Shown here: one piece after another, positions 1,490 through 24,797 of the stretch | Position numbering within the stretch: position 1 is the stretch's first letter | Layout: every line of letters starts with the position of its first letter | Assembly (NCBI GenBank): GCA_964644035.1 | Contig: CAZXUH010000001.1 | Coordinates: 131,712 to 195,711 of the forward strand | DNA from: an uncultured Candidatus Saccharibacteria bacterium | GTDB taxonomy: Bacteria; Patescibacteriota; Minisyncoccia; Phycocordibacterales; DAORIS01 | Length of the DNA stretch: 64,000 nt | Reading direction: 5' to 3' | Program-made: the position numbers and the translations under genes | Notes under the pieces: generated by a model | The model's input: only the letters and a program-made list of their open reading frames with translations | Told to the model about the DNA's origin: nothing | Databases searched by the model: none

Positions 1490-4177
1490 ATGCCCCCATT
1501 TAGCAATTTTACGACAAAAGCAAAGGAAGCAATCCGCAAGGCTCATGAGCTGGCTATTGAACGTGGTCAAAACCATGTAAATCCTCTCCATTTGCTCGCA
1601 GCACTTGTTCTCCAGGAAGAAGGTATGGTGCCGGCTATTTTGGAACATCTCGAAACAGATACGATACTTCTTACTGACTCATTGCTCGAAGCAATTGAAG
1701 GCTCTGAAGGTTCTCAGGTCCTTTCACCTTCATATCAGATTTATCTCACTCCAGAACTGGCACAGGTGATCGAGAGTTCAATGAAGATTACAAAATCTCT
1801 CAATGATGAATTTGTTTCTACAGAACATCTCTTGCTCGCCATCATCGACGTGCCAGGACGAGCGCGAGAAATACTCGCGCGATTTAGAATTGATCGCGAT
1901 ACCATCGTGCGCGTTGTCGAAGAACTCAAACACTCAAAAGTGAGTGACGTCAGTCAGCCCAAGAAAAACAAATCTCTTACAAAATATACTCGTTCGCTTA
2001 CCAAAATGGCAGCAGAGAATAAGCTCGACCCTGTCATTGGTCGTGATACCGAAATCAGCCGCATCATTCAGATTCTTTCTCGTCGCACCAAAAACAATCC
2101 GATTCTTATCGGTGAAGCGGGCGTAGGTAAAACTGCAATTGTCGAAGGTCTTGCGGTGCGCATGGCTCAAGGTGATGTCCCAGAATCACTCAAAGACAAA
2201 GAACTTGTCTCACTCGATCTTGGTGCGCTCGTAGCCGGTACAAAATATCGTGGAGAATTTGAAGAAAGACTCAAAAATATTATAAAAGAAATCGAACGCT
2301 CAGAAGGCAAGATTATTCTCTTTATCGATGAGATCCATACGATTGTCGGTGCAGGAAGTGCAGAAGGATCGCTTGATGCTTCAAATATGTTGAAGCCTGC
2401 GCTTGCTCGAGGTGAACTTCGTGCTATTGGTGCGACCACACTCAAGGAATATCAGAAACATATTGAAAAAGATCCGGCACTTACACGACGCTTCCAACCC
2501 GTCTATGTCCAAGAACCTTCTACCGAAGATGCAGTAGCGATTTTGCGAGGCCTCAAGGAAAAATATGAGCTCTATCATGGTGTGCGTATTACCGACGATG
2601 CTATTATCGCAGCCGTAAATCTCTCAAGCAGATATATTACTGATCGTTTTTTGCCAGACAAAGCAGTCGACCTTATCGACGAGTCCGCATCGTATTTGAA
2701 AATTTCTCTAGAAAATATGCCGCCGATCTTGCAGGAAACTCATGCCAAGATCATGCGTTTTGAAATAGAAAAAGAAGCGCTTAAGAAAGAAGCAGAAACC
2801 TCTAAAGTTGCTAAAGAGCGCATTAAGAAAATAGAAAAGGAAGTTGCAGATCTCAAGGAAAAGACTTCAGAGATAGAAATAAAGTGGAATAATGAAAAGG
2901 AAATCTTGGCTGGCATAAAGTCTGCCAAGAAAAATCTTGAAACGATGCGTCTCGAAGCCGAAGGTGCAGAAGCTCGTGCTGATCTATCTAAGGCAGCAGA
3001 GATTCGTTATGGCAAAATTCCACAACTCGAAAAGCAACTCGATACACAAACCAAGAAGCTCAAAAAACTTCAGAGTTCGCGCAGAATTCTTAAGGAAGAA
3101 ATCACCGAACAAGATATTGCCGACGTCGTGGCACGATGGACTGGTATTCCAGTATCACGCATGATGGAAACCGAAGCAGACAAACTTTCTCGCATGGAAG
3201 AAGTACTTGGCAAGCGTATTGTAGGACAAAATGCAGCTGTCAAAACTATTTCAGATACTGTTAAGCGAAGCCGTGCTGGTATTTCAGATCCAAACCGCCC
3301 TATCGGTTCATTTATCTTCCTAGGTCCTACTGGAGTTGGTAAAACAGAACTCACCAAGGCTCTTGCAGAGTTTATGTTTGATGATGAAAAAGCATTGGTC
3401 AGAGTTGATATGTCTGAATTTATGGAAAAACATGCAGTATCAAAACTCATTGGTGCACCTCCAGGATATGTAGGTTTTGATGAAGGTGGCGGTCTTACTG
3501 AAACAATCAGACATCGCCCATATTCAGTCGTACTCTTCGATGAAATAGAAAAAGCTCATCCAGAAGTATTCAATGTACTTCTTCAAGTGCTCGACAATGG
3601 TCGTTTGACCGACTCAAAAGGTAGAGTGGTCAACTTCAAGAATACGATCATTATCATGACGTCGAACCTTGGTGCTCAATATATCGACAAGATGCAGAAG
3701 ATTGGTTTTGCTCTCGAAAAAGCTGAGATTCAAGAATACGCAAACGTAAAAGACAAGGTTATGGAAGCCCTCAAAGAACACTTCCGACCAGAATTTCTCA
3801 ATCGTATTGATGAAACGATTATCTTCGACATACTTCCACCTCAGGCTATTGTCGAAATCGTTAAGATTCAAGTGGACCTCGTAAGAGAGAGACTTGCTCA
3901 AAAAGAAGTGACGCTCGAAATAGGTGATGATGTTATGCAATATCTTGCCAAAGAAGGCTACAGTCCCCAGTACGGTGCGCGACCGCTCAAGCGTCTCATA
4001 CAAAATAAGATTCTCAATCCCGTCGCTTCACTTATGATTTCAAAAGGCATTATGCGTGGTGGATCGGTAGCAGTATCGCTCGACAAAGCTGGTCAGTTTA
4101 AGTTTGATGTCAAAAAAGGCAGAAAGGGAAGCTTGATGAGAGAAGAACTCATTATCGACAATAAAGTCGCTGTCTAA
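1490..4177 (+). CDS. clpB: Chaperone ClpB (AAA+ disaggregase, two nucleotide-binding domains plus coiled-coil middle domain)
   Basis: 895 aa. Clp N-domain, Walker A motifs GEAGVGKT and GPTGVGKT, and a long coiled-coil insertion between the AAA modules typical of ClpB. Confidence 0.9.
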
Positions 4178-4849: not shown

Positions 4850-6085
4850 ATGATCCATACGAGTCTCTCTCCGAACGCCGAAGCAGACGACGTACTACTA
4901 GCCGCGGCTATGGCCCTGACGCCTTGGAGCTGGAAATCAGGCGAACCGGTTAGGCGAGTAGAAGAGTCTATTGAAGAAATACTTGGTGCGGGGCATGTTG
5001 TAACTGTTGATAGTGGTCGAACAGCGCTTCACACTATTCTCAAAGCATTTGATCTTCAGAAAGACGATGAAGTACTGTTGCAGGCATATACATGCGTTGC
5101 GGTGCCAGAACCTATCCTTTGGCTTCAATGCAAACCAGTGTATGTTGATTGTAATAAAGAATACACAATAGATATTGCAGATCTTGAGAAAAAAATCACT
5201 CCAAAATCAAAAGTGATAATTGCCCAACATACATTTGGCAAAGCAGCAGATATGGATGCTATTTTGGCGATAGCAAAAAAGCACAATCTATTTGTCATAG
5301 AAGATTGCGCGCATGCACTTGGTGGAAAATATAAAAATAAACCATTGGGTTCTCTTGCCGATGCAGCATTTTTTAGTTTTGGAAGGGACAAATGCGTGTC
5401 ATCAGTATTTGGTGGAGCAATTGCTGTCAGAGAAGAAACACTCTATAAGAAAATCAAATCTATTACGGACGCATATCCATTACCTAAAAATATATGGGTC
5501 CTGCAGCAGCTCATGCATCCGATCGTCTTAACTCTTTCAAAATCCACCTACAACTTTCTTTCTTTGGGAAAAATAATTCTCGAAGGTGCCAAGCGTCTCA
5601 ATATCATTTCCAAAGCCGTAGAGCCTGTAGAATTGTCGGGCGGTGTGCCGAGTTTTGCTTTCCATAGATTTTCTCCAGCTTTGGCAGAACTAGCATACAG
5701 ACAATTACAAAAACTACCGCGCTTCTTAGCTAACAGACGAGAATTGGCTCGTACATATGCTGGACGACTTTCTGGTCTTGGGGGTATTCATGCGTCCGCA
5801 TATGATCCAGAACATGCGTATTTGCGTTATACGATAGAACTTACCAATACATCTCCAAAAGAAATATTTGATCGAGCAAAAGCCAGAGGTATACAACTTG
5901 GAGATTGGTATACAAGTGTTTTAGCACCAAGAGGTGTGATGTATGAAAAAGTACAGTATGCACTTGGATCATGCCCACAAGCAGAATATTTGGCAAATCA
6001 CACGCTCAATCTACCAACTCATATTGGTATTAAACCGACAATGACCAATGATATTGTGGCCTGCATTATAGACAATCATGTATAA
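4850..6085 (+). CDS. DegT/DnrJ/EryC1/StrS-family PLP-dependent sugar aminotransferase
   Basis: 411 aa. QHTFGKAADMDAILAIAKKHNLFVIEDCAHALGG matches the hallmark region of DegT-type aminotransferases. Confidence 0.8.
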   Translation: MIHTSLSPNAEADDVLLAAAMALTPWSWKSGEPVRRVEESIEEILGAGHVVTVDSGRTALHTILKAFDLQKDDEVLLQAYTCVAVPEPILWLQCKPVYVDCNKEYTIDIADLEKKITPKSKVIIAQHTFGKAADMDAILAIAKKHNLFVIEDCAHALGGKYKNKPLGSLADAAFFSFGRDKCVSSVFGGAIAVREETLYKKIKSITDAYPLPKNIWVLQQLMHPIVLTLSKSTYNFLSLGKIILEGAKRLNIISKAVEPVELSGGVPSFAFHRFSPALAELAYRQLQKLPRFLANRRELARTYAGRLSGLGGIHASAYDPEHAYLRYTIELTNTSPKEIFDRAKARGIQLGDWYTSVLAPRGVMYEKVQYALGSCPQAEYLANHTLNLPTHIGIKPTMTNDIVACIIDNHV

Positions 6086-7109
6086 CGTCAAACCTATTAC
6101 AGAAGCGGGAATATGGGATGATTTTATCGCCAAGGTGCGACCAAGTACGTTTTTACATACATGGAGCTCAGGAGAATTGGAGAAACATTCTAATAGGGAA
6201 ATCTTTAGATTTGGAGTGTTTGATAGTGCTGACAATCTCAAATCAGTCGTATTGGCGGTAAAGGTTACTGCGCGTCGAGGTACATTTTTACTCTGTCCTC
6301 ATGGTCCGATTATTGGCAATGAAAATTCTGAACAGTTCTCAGATATAGTAAAAGTTATTTCAAAAGAGCTTATACGCATTGCTAAAGAAAATAAGTGTGT
6401 CTTTTTACGAGTAAGTACGTCTATTGTCGCTTCACCAGATAGAATAAAAGCATTTAAAAAGCTTGGATTTAGAAATGCACCCATTCACGTGCATAGCGAA
6501 CTCTCATGGATTCTCAATATTACAAAGTCAGAAAATGTTCTTCTCAATGAAATGAAGAAAAATACCCGCTATGGCATACGCAAGGCCGAGCGTGATGGAA
6601 TAAAAATCGTTTCAAGTACCAATCCTGAAGATATAGAAGTATTTTGGAATTTACATCAGAAGACAGCCATCTATCATTCATTTGTACCGTATTCTAAAGA
6701 CTATATTTACAAAGAGTTTCTTGAATTTTCAAAAACAGATTCTGCTCGCTGGTATTTTGCTCATTACAACAATGAAGTGGTGTCAGCAGCGATGATCATC
6801 TTTACTCCATGGTCAGCGTTCTATCATCACGGCGCTTCGCTGCATTCGCATTCGTCGATTACACCATCTGAACTTTTGCAATGGCAGGCAATCATTGATG
6901 CAAAAAAGCGCGGTTGCAGCACCTACAATTTTTGGGGTGTCATAGTCGATGACAACTCGCATCATCCATGGGCAGGACTATCTCGATTTAAAAAAGGTTT
7001 TGGCGGATACGATGAAGCATACATTCATGCACAGGATTATCCGCTGTCGTGGAAATACTGGATTACCTATGGTATAGAAACAATACGAAAATGGAAGAGA
7101 AAAGTATAA
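6078..7109 (+). CDS. FemAB-family aminoacyl-tRNA-dependent peptidoglycan peptidyltransferase (FemX-like)
   Basis: 343 aa. Motif KKNTRYGIRKAERDGIKI and a GNAT-like duplicated fold are characteristic of the FemABX family. Confidence 0.65.
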   Translation: MYNVKPITEAGIWDDFIAKVRPSTFLHTWSSGELEKHSNREIFRFGVFDSADNLKSVVLAVKVTARRGTFLLCPHGPIIGNENSEQFSDIVKVISKELIRIAKENKCVFLRVSTSIVASPDRIKAFKKLGFRNAPIHVHSELSWILNITKSENVLLNEMKKNTRYGIRKAERDGIKIVSSTNPEDIEVFWNLHQKTAIYHSFVPYSKDYIYKEFLEFSKTDSARWYFAHYNNEVVSAAMIIFTPWSAFYHHGASLHSHSSITPSELLQWQAIIDAKKRGCSTYNFWGVIVDDNSHHPWAGLSRFKKGFGGYDEAYIHAQDYPLSWKYWITYGIETIRKWKRKV

Positions 7110-20646: not shown

Positions 20647-21672
20647 ATGAAAGTCAGTAATATAAAGGATAACAAGAAGGCTGGTCCTAAGAATATCTGG
20701 ATAGATCTCAAGAAAAAAGCCGATGCCGAACATCGACCTATTTGTGTACTTGCACCTATGGCAGACGTCACTGATGCAGCATTTAGAAAAGTTATCGCCA
20801 AATACGGCATGCCCGATGCTATGTGGACAGAATTTGTCTCTGCCGATGGTCTAGCGAGAGCAACCGGTATAGGTAAAGAAAAATTACTCAGACATTTGCT
20901 TTATAGTAAAAATGAGAAGCCAATCATTGCTCAATTTTTTACCTCTACTCCAGAATACATGAAGGCAGCGGCTGAACTTGCATACAAACTTGGCTTCGAT
21001 GGTATTGATATCAATATGGGTTGCCCAGACAGATCGGTTGAAAAGCAATGCGCCGGTGCAGCACTTATGAAAGATCCTAAAAATGCTCGAGCACTTATCC
21101 GTGCCGCCAAAGAGGGTGCGCATGGTCTACCGGTGTCAGTCAAAACAAGACTTGGTTTCAATAAAGATGAATTGGAAACGTGGCTGCCAGAACTTCTTGC
21201 AGAAAATCCAGCCGTGATCACTGTTCACGCTCGTACTCGCAAGGAACTATCTCTCGTACCTGCGCGATGGGAGAGAGTCAAAAGGGCCGTGGAGATACGC
21301 AATGAACTCAAAAGCGACACACTTATTTTTGGCAATGGAGATGTGTTGTCAGTAGAACATGCCCACAAACTGGCCAAAGAATCTGGTGCCGATGGTGTCA
21401 TGCTCGGCAGAGCAATTTTTGGTAATCCTTGGTTATTCGGTACACCAGCAACTTCGGTAGAAGAAAAACTCAAGGTAATGCTCGAACATACAAAACTTTT
21501 TGAAAAATTATTGGGTGATGTGAAGAATTTTGCAGTTATGCGCAAACACTACAAAGCCTATGTATCAGGATTTGAAGGCGCATCTGCTTTGCGAGTCAAA
21601 CTTATGGAAACTCAGAATGCAAAAGAGGTTGCTAAGGTAGTAAAGGATTATTTGGCGGGGAATGTAGTGTAG
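20647..21672 (+). CDS. tRNA-dihydrouridine synthase (Dus family)
   Basis: 341 aa. ICVLAPMADVTDAAFR plus a TIM-barrel FMN-site pattern of Dus enzymes. Confidence 0.8.
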   Translation: MKVSNIKDNKKAGPKNIWIDLKKKADAEHRPICVLAPMADVTDAAFRKVIAKYGMPDAMWTEFVSADGLARATGIGKEKLLRHLLYSKNEKPIIAQFFTSTPEYMKAAAELAYKLGFDGIDINMGCPDRSVEKQCAGAALMKDPKNARALIRAAKEGAHGLPVSVKTRLGFNKDELETWLPELLAENPAVITVHARTRKELSLVPARWERVKRAVEIRNELKSDTLIFGNGDVLSVEHAHKLAKESGADGVMLGRAIFGNPWLFGTPATSVEEKLKVMLEHTKLFEKLLGDVKNFAVMRKHYKAYVSGFEGASALRVKLMETQNAKEVAKVVKDYLAGNVV

Positions 21673-21675
21673 TAC

Positions 21676-21703
21676 TTGACGTAAAAACTAGGTATGATAT
21701 AAT
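21676..21703 (+). promoter_or_regulatory. Strong sigma70-like promoter (TTGACG, 16-nt spacer, TGaTATAAT) driving the downstream ncRNA
   Basis: Near-consensus -35 and extended -10 elements immediately after the dus stop. Predicted TSS at about 21710. Confidence 0.45.
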
Positions 21704-21709
21704 ATATCC

Positions 21710-22052
21710 ACAGTAATGATAGTGGCGCGTGCTGCTACAGGACTGATGGTTCTTTACACGGAGGTCATATGACCCGCAATTGTCACGGTCCGCCCGGTTG
21801 TGTCCTTCACAACACCTTCAAGATTTTGAGCTCATCCGGCGCCGACGGCGGCAGCACGACCTGATTCCAGGTTTGCGCGGTTCGTCCCCAACAGGGAAGG
21901 ATGGTGTTGACCCGCAATCCCAGCACGGTGTCCTCGGATGCTCTGGGACTGGTTAACCCGAATATAAACACACAATCTGACGGTCACTTTTGTGGCCGCT
22001 GGTGAATAAGTACCCCCTCGCTCGTATAGCCTACGAGTGAGGGATTTTTTTA
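21710..22052 (+). ncRNA. GC-rich structured ncRNA of unknown class (SRP RNA candidate), ending in an intrinsic terminator
   Basis: About 340 nt at about 55% GC in a ~40% GC genome. Long-range complementarities, e.g. CGTGCTGC (21728-35) pairs with GCAGCACG (21851-58). Repeated GACCCGCAAT motifs. The segment GCAATCCCAGCAC resembles an SRP Alu-domain loop. It ends with a 12-bp hairpin plus T-run at 22013-22052. The position just upstream of dnaX is the classic place for scr/ffs. Class was not verified. Confidence 0.45.
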
Positions 22053-22088
22053 TCTTAATAAGGGAGGAACTAGTGTATAATACCTCCC

Positions 22089-23126
22089 ATGGAACATACC
22101 TCGCTCTACCGCAAATACCGTCCACAAACGTTTAAAGATGTCATCGGTCAGGACAATATTACAAAACTCCTCGAGCAGTCGATAAAAAATGAAACCATCG
22201 CTCATGCATATATTTTTGCTGGTAGTCGTGGTACAGGTAAGACCTCTGTCGCTCGTATCTTTGCTAGAGAGCTTGGTGTCTCTGAAACCGATCTCTATGA
22301 AATAGATGCTGCTTCAAATACCAGTGTCGATGATGTGCGAACACTCAATGATTCGGTCTATGTCATGCCATTTGAATCGAAATACAAGATCTATTTGCTT
22401 GATGAAGCCCACATGCTTTCGAAATCAGCTTTTAATGCATTACTTAAGACAATAGAAGAACCACCAGCTCACGTTATTTTCATACTAGCAACAACTGAAA
22501 CAGAAAAACTCCCTGATACTATTATTTCTCGCTGTCAGCTTCTACAATTTAATAAACCAAATAAAGCTCATCTTATAAAAGCGATAAACAATGTCTGTGC
22601 AAAAGAAGGTGTAGAACTAGCCAAAGGTGTAGCAGAAGTCATTGCGCGTGTGGGCGATGGTTCATATCGTGATACGCTTGGTGCTTTGCAGAAAGTCGTC
22701 AGTGCATATCCAGAAGGCACTATCACACTTGCTCAGACAGAGGAGATTACAGGTGCGCCAAAAGCACAGCTGATTATTGAACTCATGCACGCTCTCGATC
22801 ACAAAGATTCTGAACGCGGACTCAAGACGCTCGCCGACGCTCGCGCTGCTCAGATTTCATTTAAACTCACCCTAGAGCTTCTTTTGGATAGAGTTAGAGC
22901 GGCGCTTTTGGTACGTACTGCACCTTCACTTGCCGATACCATGCTTACAGAACTCAGTGATGAAGAGGTAGTGGCTGTACAAGCTGTCGCTAAAAATAAA
23001 GAATCAGGAATCAATTCAAAGGCTCTCCTAGAACTCCTACGTGCCGAGCAGGCTATGCGTTTTGCCTCAGATGAAGCGATGCCAGTAGAACTGGTGTTTA
23101 TTGCACTTTCGGAGAAGGCTGTATAA
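22089..23126 (+). CDS. dnaX: DNA polymerase III subunit gamma/tau, short form (domains I-III only)
   Basis: 345 aa. AHAYIFAGSRGTGKTS Walker A, DEAHML Walker B, SRC motif. No tau C-terminal domains. Confidence 0.85.
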   Translation: MEHTSLYRKYRPQTFKDVIGQDNITKLLEQSIKNETIAHAYIFAGSRGTGKTSVARIFARELGVSETDLYEIDAASNTSVDDVRTLNDSVYVMPFESKYKIYLLDEAHMLSKSAFNALLKTIEEPPAHVIFILATTETEKLPDTIISRCQLLQFNKPNKAHLIKAINNVCAKEGVELAKGVAEVIARVGDGSYRDTLGALQKVVSAYPEGTITLAQTEEITGAPKAQLIIELMHALDHKDSERGLKTLADARAAQISFKLTLELLLDRVRAALLVRTAPSLADTMLTELSDEEVVAVQAVAKNKESGINSKALLELLRAEQAMRFASDEAMPVELVFIALSEKAV

Positions 23127-24019: not shown

Positions 24020-24090
24020 TGCCAGATCGTCTAACGGTAGGACACCGCCCTTTGGAGGCGGGTATCTTGGTTCGATTCCAAGCCTGGCAG
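24020..24090 (+). tRNA. tRNA-Gln (anticodon TTG); U1:A72 pair, discriminator G, CCA not encoded
   Basis: Hand-folded: acceptor TGCCAGA/CCTGGCA (one 7:66 mismatch), D-stem GTCT/GGAC, anticodon stem CCGCC/GGCGG with loop CTTTGGA, T-arm CTTGG-TTCGATT-CCAAG. The U1:A72 pair is a known Gln identity feature. Confidence 0.6.
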
Positions 24091-24143
24091 CAGTTTTAAG
24101 GCAGAATTAGAATTTTGATAGGTATCTAGTTTATACTTTTATT

Positions 24144-24797
24144 ATGGTCAAGGACATCTTATATAAAGAAAAATTTGAACAATTGCAACACCAGTTGCTA
24201 GCATCCTACTCAACTTTCTATGTATGGAAATCACTCCAAAAAGAAGAATATAATGAATTTTATAAAATAAACAATGGTTTTTGGTCAGCAGTCATTCCAG
24301 CACTACAGCATGAATGGTTTATGGGACTTGCGCGTGTATTTGAGGATTCAGCTTATAGTAAAAAGAATAAGATAATCTCAGTACATTCTCTTATTCAAGA
24401 GCATCCAAATAAGCAAAGAGCAGAAGCCGCTCAAGAATTTCTTGATAAAAACCAAAAAGTTATTAAAAATATATCGCGAATTAGAGATCATCGGCATGCC
24501 CACAATAATGCAAAATTTTTAGTAAATCCAGAAGAATTTGAAAATATTTTTTCCATTCAATATTCTGAGATCGAACATATGTTCGACTTTAGTGGTAAGT
24601 TGCTTAGTCTGTTACATCCAGAAGACGGACATGGATACATGCTGGGTCATATGAAAGATGAAGCTGAGCTTCATACTAAAGATGTTATGGACGGTATTCG
24701 CTACTTTAACTTTAAAAGAAAAGAACACAGAGAAAGATATGTAAAAGAGGGTGGCGATTATCAGTTTCCTCCAACGGACCAAAGTAAGATTAAATAA
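24144..24797 (+). CDS. Hypothetical all-alpha protein, possible HEPN/Abi-like
   Basis: 217 aa. RIRDHRHAH segment (R-x4-H spacing). Sits directly downstream of the tRNA-Gln. Family not confirmed. Confidence 0.45.
   Translation: MVKDILYKEKFEQLQHQLLASYSTFYVWKSLQKEEYNEFYKINNGFWSAVIPALQHEWFMGLARVFEDSAYSKKNKIISVHSLIQEHPNKQRAEAAQEFLDKNQKVIKNISRIRDHRHAHNNAKFLVNPEEFENIFSIQYSEIEHMFDFSGKLLSLLHPEDGHGYMLGHMKDEAELHTKDVMDGIRYFNFKRKEHRERYVKEGGDYQFPPTDQSKIK

Follow-up and report, generated by a model that had tools for sequence, protein, structure and literature searches.

What is encoded in the gap between dus and dnaX in an uncultured Candidatus Saccharibacteria bacterium, and does it belong to a known class of RNA? 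The question arises in a stretch of 64,000 nucleotides (nt) of its genome (GenBank assembly GCA_964644035.1, contig CAZXUH010000001.1, positions 131,712 to 195,711 of the forward strand), which we call the window and whose numbering we use throughout. A first-pass annotation, made from the sequence alone, placed a GC-rich structured non-coding RNA (ncRNA) in this gap and proposed that it was the RNA of the signal recognition particle (SRP). We find that the gap holds an autonomous, self-contained small gene. Judged from database searches, this unit appears to belong to no known RNA or protein family. Our preferred reading, which we hold tentatively, is a fast-evolving, lineage-specific transcript that carries a translated small open reading frame (ORF) or has a dual function.

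The unit lies on the forward strand and covers ~21710 to 22051, with start and extent deduced from its promoter and terminator. The sigma-70 promoter (21676..21703, forward strand) consists of a -35 box TTGACG at 21676-81, a 16-nt spacer, a TG at 21695-96 and a -10 box TATAAT at 21698-21703. It matches the consensus at 11 of 12 positions and has the TG extension besides. Only two promoters with 11/12 matches are found on both strands of the 64 kb, and the extension is present in the unit's alone. This would put the start of transcription near 21710. At the other end lies an intrinsic terminator (22015..22051, forward strand). Its stem of 12 bp at 22015-22043 contains 7 GC pairs, and a T7 run comes next. 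The hairpin has a free energy (dG) of -20 kcal/mol, and the terminator ends 45 nt 5' of the dnaX ATG. The window has five strong terminators, this one included. The GC content over 21725-22024 is 0.57-0.60, compared with 0.42 for the window and 0.31-0.45 for the other gene-free gaps. At 54-60% GC, the island exceeds all others of the window in length and strength. The upstream neighbour is Dus (Pfam, E=5e-61), and Pfam supports both flanking genes. In these respects the first-pass annotation was accurate: the promoter TTGACG-16-TGaTATAAT, the closing 12-bp hairpin with its U-run and the GC-rich stretch of ~340 nt between dus and dnaX are all present. The unit is probably strongly expressed. 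No antisense promoter was found on its minus strand.

We collected relatives with a DnaX search in a collection of 5.8 billion proteins, using full-length and N-terminal 130-aa queries, with genome and metagenome contigs covered in one scan each. The homologues come from Patescibacteria, in Paceibacteria/Parcubacteria-like organisms. Only six relatives have a DnaX at least 66% identical, and four of them have usable upstream DNA. The same-species contigs L163 and L164 are identical to the window or one single-nucleotide polymorphism (SNP) apart. Four syntenic elements were compared: that of the window and those of the loci L081 (the same place as L083; DnaX 79% identical), L167 (78%) and L166 (74%). 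The three relatives present an equally designed unit directly upstream of dnaX. Their promoters have 10-11 of 12 matches with the TG, and spacer bases are also kept relative to the window. The bodies of their units measure ~300-360 nt, and GC is 47-59% in all four elements. Terminators occupy the equivalent position in L081 and L166; that of L167 is a 14-bp hairpin followed by a U-run. L082 (DnaX 67%) does not have the unit; its dnaX directly adjoins a DoxX-like gene.

The bodies of the four elements cannot be aligned, despite DnaX proteins that are 74-79% identical. When the element was compared by nhmmer and blastn with 82 and later ~170 loci, the promoter alone was shared (L081 and L167). 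A blastn comparison with phage genomes gave no match. The RNAalifold consensus fold reaches -18.8 kcal/mol for the window with L081 and -1.4 kcal/mol for all four, compared with -86 to -145 kcal/mol for the individual folds. For the four elements together, the consensus fold is thus essentially empty. This lack of a common fold argues against a classical structured ncRNA. Although its sequence is replaced, the unit keeps its promoter, ribosome-binding site, ATG, open frame, GC content and terminator, and this is the evidence that it is under selection. It is confined to a narrow subclade of Paceibacteria (Patescibacteria, or candidate phyla radiation, CPR).

The label of ncRNA became uncertain on inspection of the 5' half, where the first-pass annotation had missed a conserved Shine-Dalgarno (SD) box, an ATG and a short ORF. 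The window has the SD box GGAGG at 21760-64 and the start codon at 21769. ORF1 (21769..21864, forward strand) consists of 31 codons plus TGA and encodes MTRNCHGPPGCVLHNTFKILSSSGADGGSTT. The SD boxes of the four elements are GGAGG, AAGGA, GGAGG and GAGGAG, located 4-7 nt before the ATG, and in every case SD and ATG lie 35-67 nt downstream of the inferred transcription start. The open frames extend over 31, 39, 30 and 59 codons. An SD-like box precedes ~15 of the 57 gene starts of the window, so that its presence in four of four elements is notable. The start codon is presented in a hairpin, which in the window is GGUCAUAUGACC (21763-74, forward strand; SD box and hairpin together 21760..21774; dG -5.7 kcal/mol). 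The equivalent hairpins are GAAUCAUAUAUGAUUC in L081 and UCGCUAUGAAGCGA in L166. Their stems differ, with GGUC/GACC in the window, GAAUCA/UGAUUC in L081, UCGCU/AGCGA in L166 and a weaker one in L167. In each of the four elements, a very stable hairpin contains or adjoins the ORF1 stop. Three of the elements give ORF1 a higher codon score than the other two frames. We then counted, in dinucleotide shuffles, how often an SD 4-mer is followed by a spacer of 4-9 nt, an ATG and at least 30 open codons. All four elements show this arrangement, compared with 4.75%, 4.25%, 5.75% and 9% of their shuffles; the joint probability of ~1e-5 overstates independence, as the four elements share ancestry.

That shared ancestry is one of several points that weigh against a translated ORF1. 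A six-frame peptide comparison of the four elements found no significant similarity beyond translations of the promoter region, and the ORF1 peptides match no Pfam or NCBIfam family. The codon log-likelihood ratio of ORF1 is 0.10, compared with a gene mean of 0.43, and the codon scores of the four elements do not exceed the 5th percentile of real genes. The GC content at third codon positions (GC3) of the ORFs is 0.50-0.74, compared with 0.37 genome-wide. In the ungapped alignment of the window with L081 over the first 21 codons, the substitutions are distributed 10/10/10 over the codon positions, and all six residues conserved between them have identical codons. A hairpin near the stop, GCGCC..GACGGCG, is common to both and stands in different reading frames. 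This pattern points to constraint on nucleotides rather than on amino acids. Neither amino-acid conservation nor third-position bias, as expected of purifying selection on the peptide, was found for ORF1. In addition, ORF1 takes up just 96 of the ~340 nt. High GC makes stops few and long open frames cheap; another frame of the window element is open for 58 codons. Translation, RNA stability and a role of the peptide are all inferred.

How would a translated or dual-function unit work? The near-consensus extended -10 promoter would drive a transcript of ~340 nt (~21710-22051). The hairpin at its 5' end and a chain of GC-rich local hairpins would probably give a long-lived RNA. Ribosomes would bind GGAGG and initiate at the hairpin-presented ATG. 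The frame of ~31 codons would be translated and would end in a stable hairpin. The strong terminator would close the unit and insulate a leaderless dnaX with its own promoter. What matters may be the act of translation itself, or a peptide under very little sequence constraint. The RNA might additionally be selected for GC-rich stability. Dual-function small RNAs (sRNAs) of this general kind are known: SgrS/SgrT, RNAIII/delta-haemolysin and SR1/SR1P measure ~200-500 nt and carry ORFs of 26-43 codons. In these, the peptide or the base-pairing region is conserved among relatives. The unit resembles them as a stand-alone transcript with its own promoter and terminator, and with a short SD-led ORF next to structured non-coding parts. 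However, neither the peptide nor a pairing region is recognisably conserved in it, and it has no sequence relationship with them.

The proposal of an SRP RNA drew support from position, since the gene scr stands immediately upstream of dnaX in Bacillus. This adjacency is real in non-CPR genomes; the inference drawn from it for the unit does not stand. Rfam places an SRP RNA directly upstream of dnaX in five non-CPR loci (Clostridia, Bacilli, Syntrophia-like and others). They comprise one large SRP RNA (L056, 210 bits) and four small ones (L058, L061, L073 and L127), and as controls they cover 53-210 bits. Two or three tRNAs lie just upstream of ffs in L061 and L073. For the whole window, Rfam 15 at the gathering threshold gave four tRNAs only. 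The scan of the element against Rfam, which the first-pass annotation had recommended, returned nothing relevant at E<=10 over 21600-22150. Over the same segment together with L081, L166 and L167, this permissive scan produced noise only, with no match to the SRP clan (RF00169 and RF01854 included).

The core that defines an SRP RNA is also missing. We built a descriptor of the universal core of helix 8, the binding site of the Ffh M domain, from 5'-AGG, a short stem, a GNRA tetraloop, a short stem and AGCA-3'. Each of the five Rfam-verified controls reaches 8-9 of 9 and has a GGAA loop. By contrast, 6 of 9 is the maximum on either strand for the window, L081, L166 and L167, and their top matches contain no GNRA loop. 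This agrees with the first-pass annotation, in which no clean helix-8 GGAA tetraloop had been seen by eye. The string GCAAUCCCAGCAC, which had been compared there with the Alu-domain loops, is present at 21913-25. Nevertheless, it is located ~200 nt into the transcript and inside an ordinary hairpin, where UCCCAG is paired with CUGGGA. The unit shares with bacterial SRP RNA (ffs/scr) the slot and orientation upstream of dnaX, a stand-alone character, a strong promoter and terminator, and a size near that of the Bacillus-type precursor. It differs in having no helix-8 core, covariance match, Alu fold or conservation, and in having an SD box with an ORF. Could it be a highly divergent SRP RNA in the ancestral ffs slot? 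The synteny of ffs and dnaX in other phyla and the Alu-like string would favour this, as would the absence of a canonical SRP RNA from the 64-kb window and from the ~55 Paceibacteria dnaX neighbourhoods, which were the scope searched. Yet a body that cannot be aligned at this degree of DnaX identity is unlike any essential ribonucleoprotein RNA. L082 lacks the element, and in most Paceibacteria the space upstream of dnaX is shorter than 60 nt. Together with the negative scans of the window and three relatives and the low helix-8 scores, this leaves a divergent SRP RNA extremely improbable. A literature search on SRP RNA, ncRNA and leaderless translation in CPR bacteria found nothing specific.

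Other explanations have to be compared with a translated or dual-function transcript. The unit might be another housekeeping RNA in disguise (6S RNA, RNase P or tmRNA) or the mRNA of a type I toxin. Its strong promoter and terminator would suit both, 6S RNAs evolve fast in primary sequence, have strong expression signals and are non-coding in character, and the N-terminus of the L167 ORF1 is hydrophobic. Against this, 6S RNA (RF00013), named as an alternative in the first-pass annotation, has no Rfam match at E<=10. It is also roughly 180 nt long, compared with ~340 nt, and the unit is predicted to form a chain of hairpins of at most 57 nt span instead of a rod with a central bubble closed by the ends. 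The earlier exclusion of tmRNA and RNase P was correct: ARAGORN found no tmRNA (four tRNAs only in the window), and RF00010/RF00011 had no match at E<=10 in the window or the three relatives. As for a toxin, three of the four peptides are not hydrophobic and there is no antisense promoter. All of this makes a housekeeping RNA or a toxin mRNA very unlikely. A cis-acting leader of dnaX (attenuator or riboswitch), with conditional read-through of the terminator and ORF1 as leader peptide, is a little easier to imagine, although still improbable. The order of promoter, short ORF or structured RNA, terminator and downstream gene on one strand is that of leader attenuators and riboswitches. The short distance between the terminator and dnaX, in the same orientation, and a short, leader-peptide-like ORF of non-conserved sequence fit this too. 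Moreover, most genes here have no SD, so a read-through transcript would still be translatable. However, dnaX has its own -10 box, TATAAT at 22076-81 (22076..22091, forward strand), 7 nt before its ATG at 22089; this box is the downstream boundary of the unit. In 75 of 95 Paceibacteria-like loci (among L001-L120), the dnaX ATG follows a TATAAT/TATACT box, often TGn-extended, at a distance of 5-9 nt. The box is there also when the upstream gene ends a few bases away and when the element is absent, for example in L082. Because of this box, dnaX appears to be leaderless and to have its own promoter, in the window and across Paceibacteria, and therefore the unit would not be its leader. The 5' arm of the terminator has no better-than-random upstream partner in three of four elements (antiterminator duplex compared with shuffled arms: window 0.98, L166 0.62, L167 0.45; L081 borderline at 0.04). 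Between the ORF1 stop and the terminator there are 100-185 nt, which contain stable hairpins. Aptamers are conserved in sequence and the body of the unit is not, no riboswitch family matches, and the ORF has no amino-acid codon bias. An independent transcription unit, rather than a 5' untranslated region of dnaX, was also the view of the first-pass annotation, and the box of dnaX and the lack of an antiterminator support it.

Two further explanations concern the body itself. It could have no function or be decaying, for example as the remnant of an earlier gene or insertion that happens to lie between a promoter and a terminator and perhaps does no more than insulate transcription. The non-conserved body, the unrelated peptides and the many unrelated small units that fill this slot in distant relatives would be expected of a remnant. 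On the other hand, neutral DNA here should drift to ~31-41% GC, below the range of all four bodies, and all four keep the promoter, SD, ATG, open frame and terminator. A remnant is thus unlikely. The strongest competitor is a purely non-coding, lineage-specific regulatory or scaffold sRNA. Its GC-rich hairpins and loops, the duplicated UGACCCGCAAU motif for example, would act in trans, with mRNAs or proteins as their targets. The SD-like box and ATG would then belong to an RNA motif, and the open frame would simply follow from high GC. The high GC is kept in four lineages despite sequence turnover (other intergenic DNA has 31-41%), and the conservation at the nucleotide level crosses reading frames. 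The exact 11-mer duplicates stand in similar hairpin-loop contexts. Within the species a single SNP is seen (21996 C>T, in L164), and the pairing survives it, with G-U in place of a predicted G-C. The promoter and terminator are of the type typical for stable RNAs. The body-only fold z-scores of the four elements are -1.5, -1.7, -2.6 and -1.0, and combined they are negative. Nevertheless, individually they are modest and the four elements have no consensus structure. An SD, an ATG and at least 30 open codons in all of them are unlikely by chance. No target complementarity was found, and the window has neither a further copy nor a complement of the 11-mer. Two specific forms of an sRNA were discarded. 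Pairing in trans with the cognate leaderless dnaX 5' end was no better than with non-cognate ends, and a CsrB-like sponge of GGA motifs has ~7 GGA, compared with ~6 expected from composition (hand count). We regard a pure sRNA as possible but rather doubtful. The first-pass annotation had kept a lineage-specific RNA as its fallback, and this fits the data. In our ranking, the small-ORF or dual-function transcript comes first and the pure sRNA second; the remnant, the dnaX leader, the housekeeping RNA or toxin and the SRP RNA are unlikely.

The predicted architecture of the transcript is a chain of local hairpins, in which the longest robust span is 57 nt and long-range closures are limited to 4-bp helices. 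The fold z-score of the unit is -3.78 with the terminator and -1.49 without it. The strong structure claimed in the first-pass annotation is largely the contribution of the terminator, and the body alone is modest. At the 5' end, a compound hairpin (21711..21745, forward strand) combines CAGU/ACUG with UGAUAGUGGC/GCUGCUACA at a base-pair probability (P) of 0.99, and L081 has an analogous one at 3668-3704. Two small hairpins within ORF1 (21797..21829, forward strand) are formed by GUUGUG/CACAAC at 21797-21813 and UCA/UGA at 21818-29, with P 0.86-0.88. The GAUUUUG block in this region is conserved with L081 in the pairwise alignment. The stable hairpin around the ORF1 stop codon (21854..21876, forward strand) pairs GCACGACCUG with CAGGUUUGC (P 0.94). 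Further on, the 3' domain is a 57-nt hairpin (21903..21959, forward strand) with three helices and 21 bp (P 0.93-1.00). An A/C-rich single-stranded linker at 21960-80 then precedes the hairpin CGGUCAC-UUUU-GUGGCCG (21981..21998, forward strand), which is present in the minimum free energy structures. The long-range 8-bp complementarity between 21728-35 and 21851-58, reported in the first-pass annotation, does exist. However, it is at chance level (~0.9 such 8-mer pairs are expected in 340 nt), and we rejected the helix, both arms being taken by local helices with P>=0.94.

The repeated elements that had been seen inside the unit go beyond chance. The 11-nt direct repeat TGACCCGCAAT occurs exactly at 21770 (copy 1, 21770..21780, forward strand) and at 21908 (21908-18), and ~0.02 such repeats are expected. 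No further exact copies or complements of it are found anywhere in the window. The second copy is held in the 3' domain, together with the Alu-like string. It is part of a larger duplicate (21893-21918) of the SD-like box, the start and the repeat, which resembles the first copy out of frame. ORF2 (21901..22005, forward strand) begins here. It has 34 codons plus TGA from the ATG at 21901, with GGGAAGGA preceding it, and an alternative TTG at 21907 gives MTRN... This ORF is a degenerate copy of the region where ORF1 starts, and only the window has it. Since its start is buried in the helix 21903-12/21951-59 (P 0.93), ORF2 is probably not translated. ORFs on the minus strand (97 aa in the window, 125 aa in L167 and 48 aa in L081) were rejected as genes, as they have no mutual similarity, no Pfam/NCBIfam family and no minus-strand promoter.

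The slot upstream of dnaX is also occupied in distant relatives, by unrelated small units. There are SD-led ORFs of 77 aa in L008 (2191-2424) and 69 aa in L095 (1876-2085), and a very acidic ORF of ~52 aa in L009 (~2279-2437). The locus L011 (~2045-2420) has a unit of ~350 nt with a promoter nearly identical to that of the window. This is in keeping with a site that readily admits small genes of fast turnover, and not with one reserved for a conserved RNA gene.

Regarding dnaX itself, the protein (22089-23126) has only 345 aa, and 339-368 aa in relatives. It contains the clamp-loader domains I-III only. It is therefore gamma-like, without the C-terminal domains of tau that bind DnaB and Pol III alpha in model bacteria. 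Immediately before it, the dnaX -10 box is flanked by the two arms of a 6-bp inverted repeat, GGGAGG...CCTCCC (22062-22088), which reaches up to the ATG. The repeat is absent from L081, L166 and L167, and it gave a spurious miRNA match in the permissive Rfam scan. It might serve as an operator or, in read-through transcripts, form an RNA hairpin. Downstream of dnaX, a tRNA-Gln(UUG) is located at 24020-24091. This gene is conserved: almost all Paceibacteria loci scanned have it 0.1-2 kb past dnaX. An AbiU2-type HEPN-domain gene follows at 24144-24797 (PF18734, E=1e-11), a candidate for abortive-infection defence. It adjoins a 138-aa ORF without a family, and the same arrangement is present in the same-species L163 and L165. 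Elsewhere in the window, ~960 nt at 6086-7048 (GC 0.39) have no unambiguous long ORF by greedy cover and no Rfam match; a TTG-start ORF from 6177 may fill them.

The initiation signals of the window were also considered as a whole. At least 9 of 57 long-ORF starts have a -10-like box 5-9 nt upstream, for example those at 4850, 9564, 23953(-), 24144, 27818, 28966, 54502 and 59740(-). Together with the few SD boxes, these signals suggest that initiation in the organism is largely leaderless and independent of SD. A leaderless dnaX across the class, together with the rare use of SD in this genome, probably has a wider practical value for gene calling.

What does this small gene mean for the organism and its group? 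In the first place, a mis-annotation is corrected. Location upstream of dnaX alone is insufficient to identify an SRP RNA, and the core that defines it can be checked cheaply with a descriptor and positive controls. Going further, the unit might represent an undescribed class of very fast-evolving, highly expressed, GC-stabilised dual-function RNAs of this Paceibacteria subclade. They would sit in the ancestral SRP-RNA slot next to a leaderless dnaX, with selection acting on the translation of a short frame and on generic stability, not on sequence. We consider such a class a long shot. If it were real, its possible roles would include a decoy that engages ribosomes or RNases, or a rapidly diversifying peptide that serves an episymbiotic way of life. 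Taken to the extreme, this idea would make the unit a functional substitute for a canonical housekeeping RNA. In any case, the unit adds one more orphan, strongly promoted small unit to the poorly charted repertoire of RNAs and small proteins in CPR bacteria. Its combination of properties is unusual: signals, frame and GC are kept, whereas sequence, peptide and fold are not. If confirmed by experiment, it could serve well to study which features of such units are under selection.

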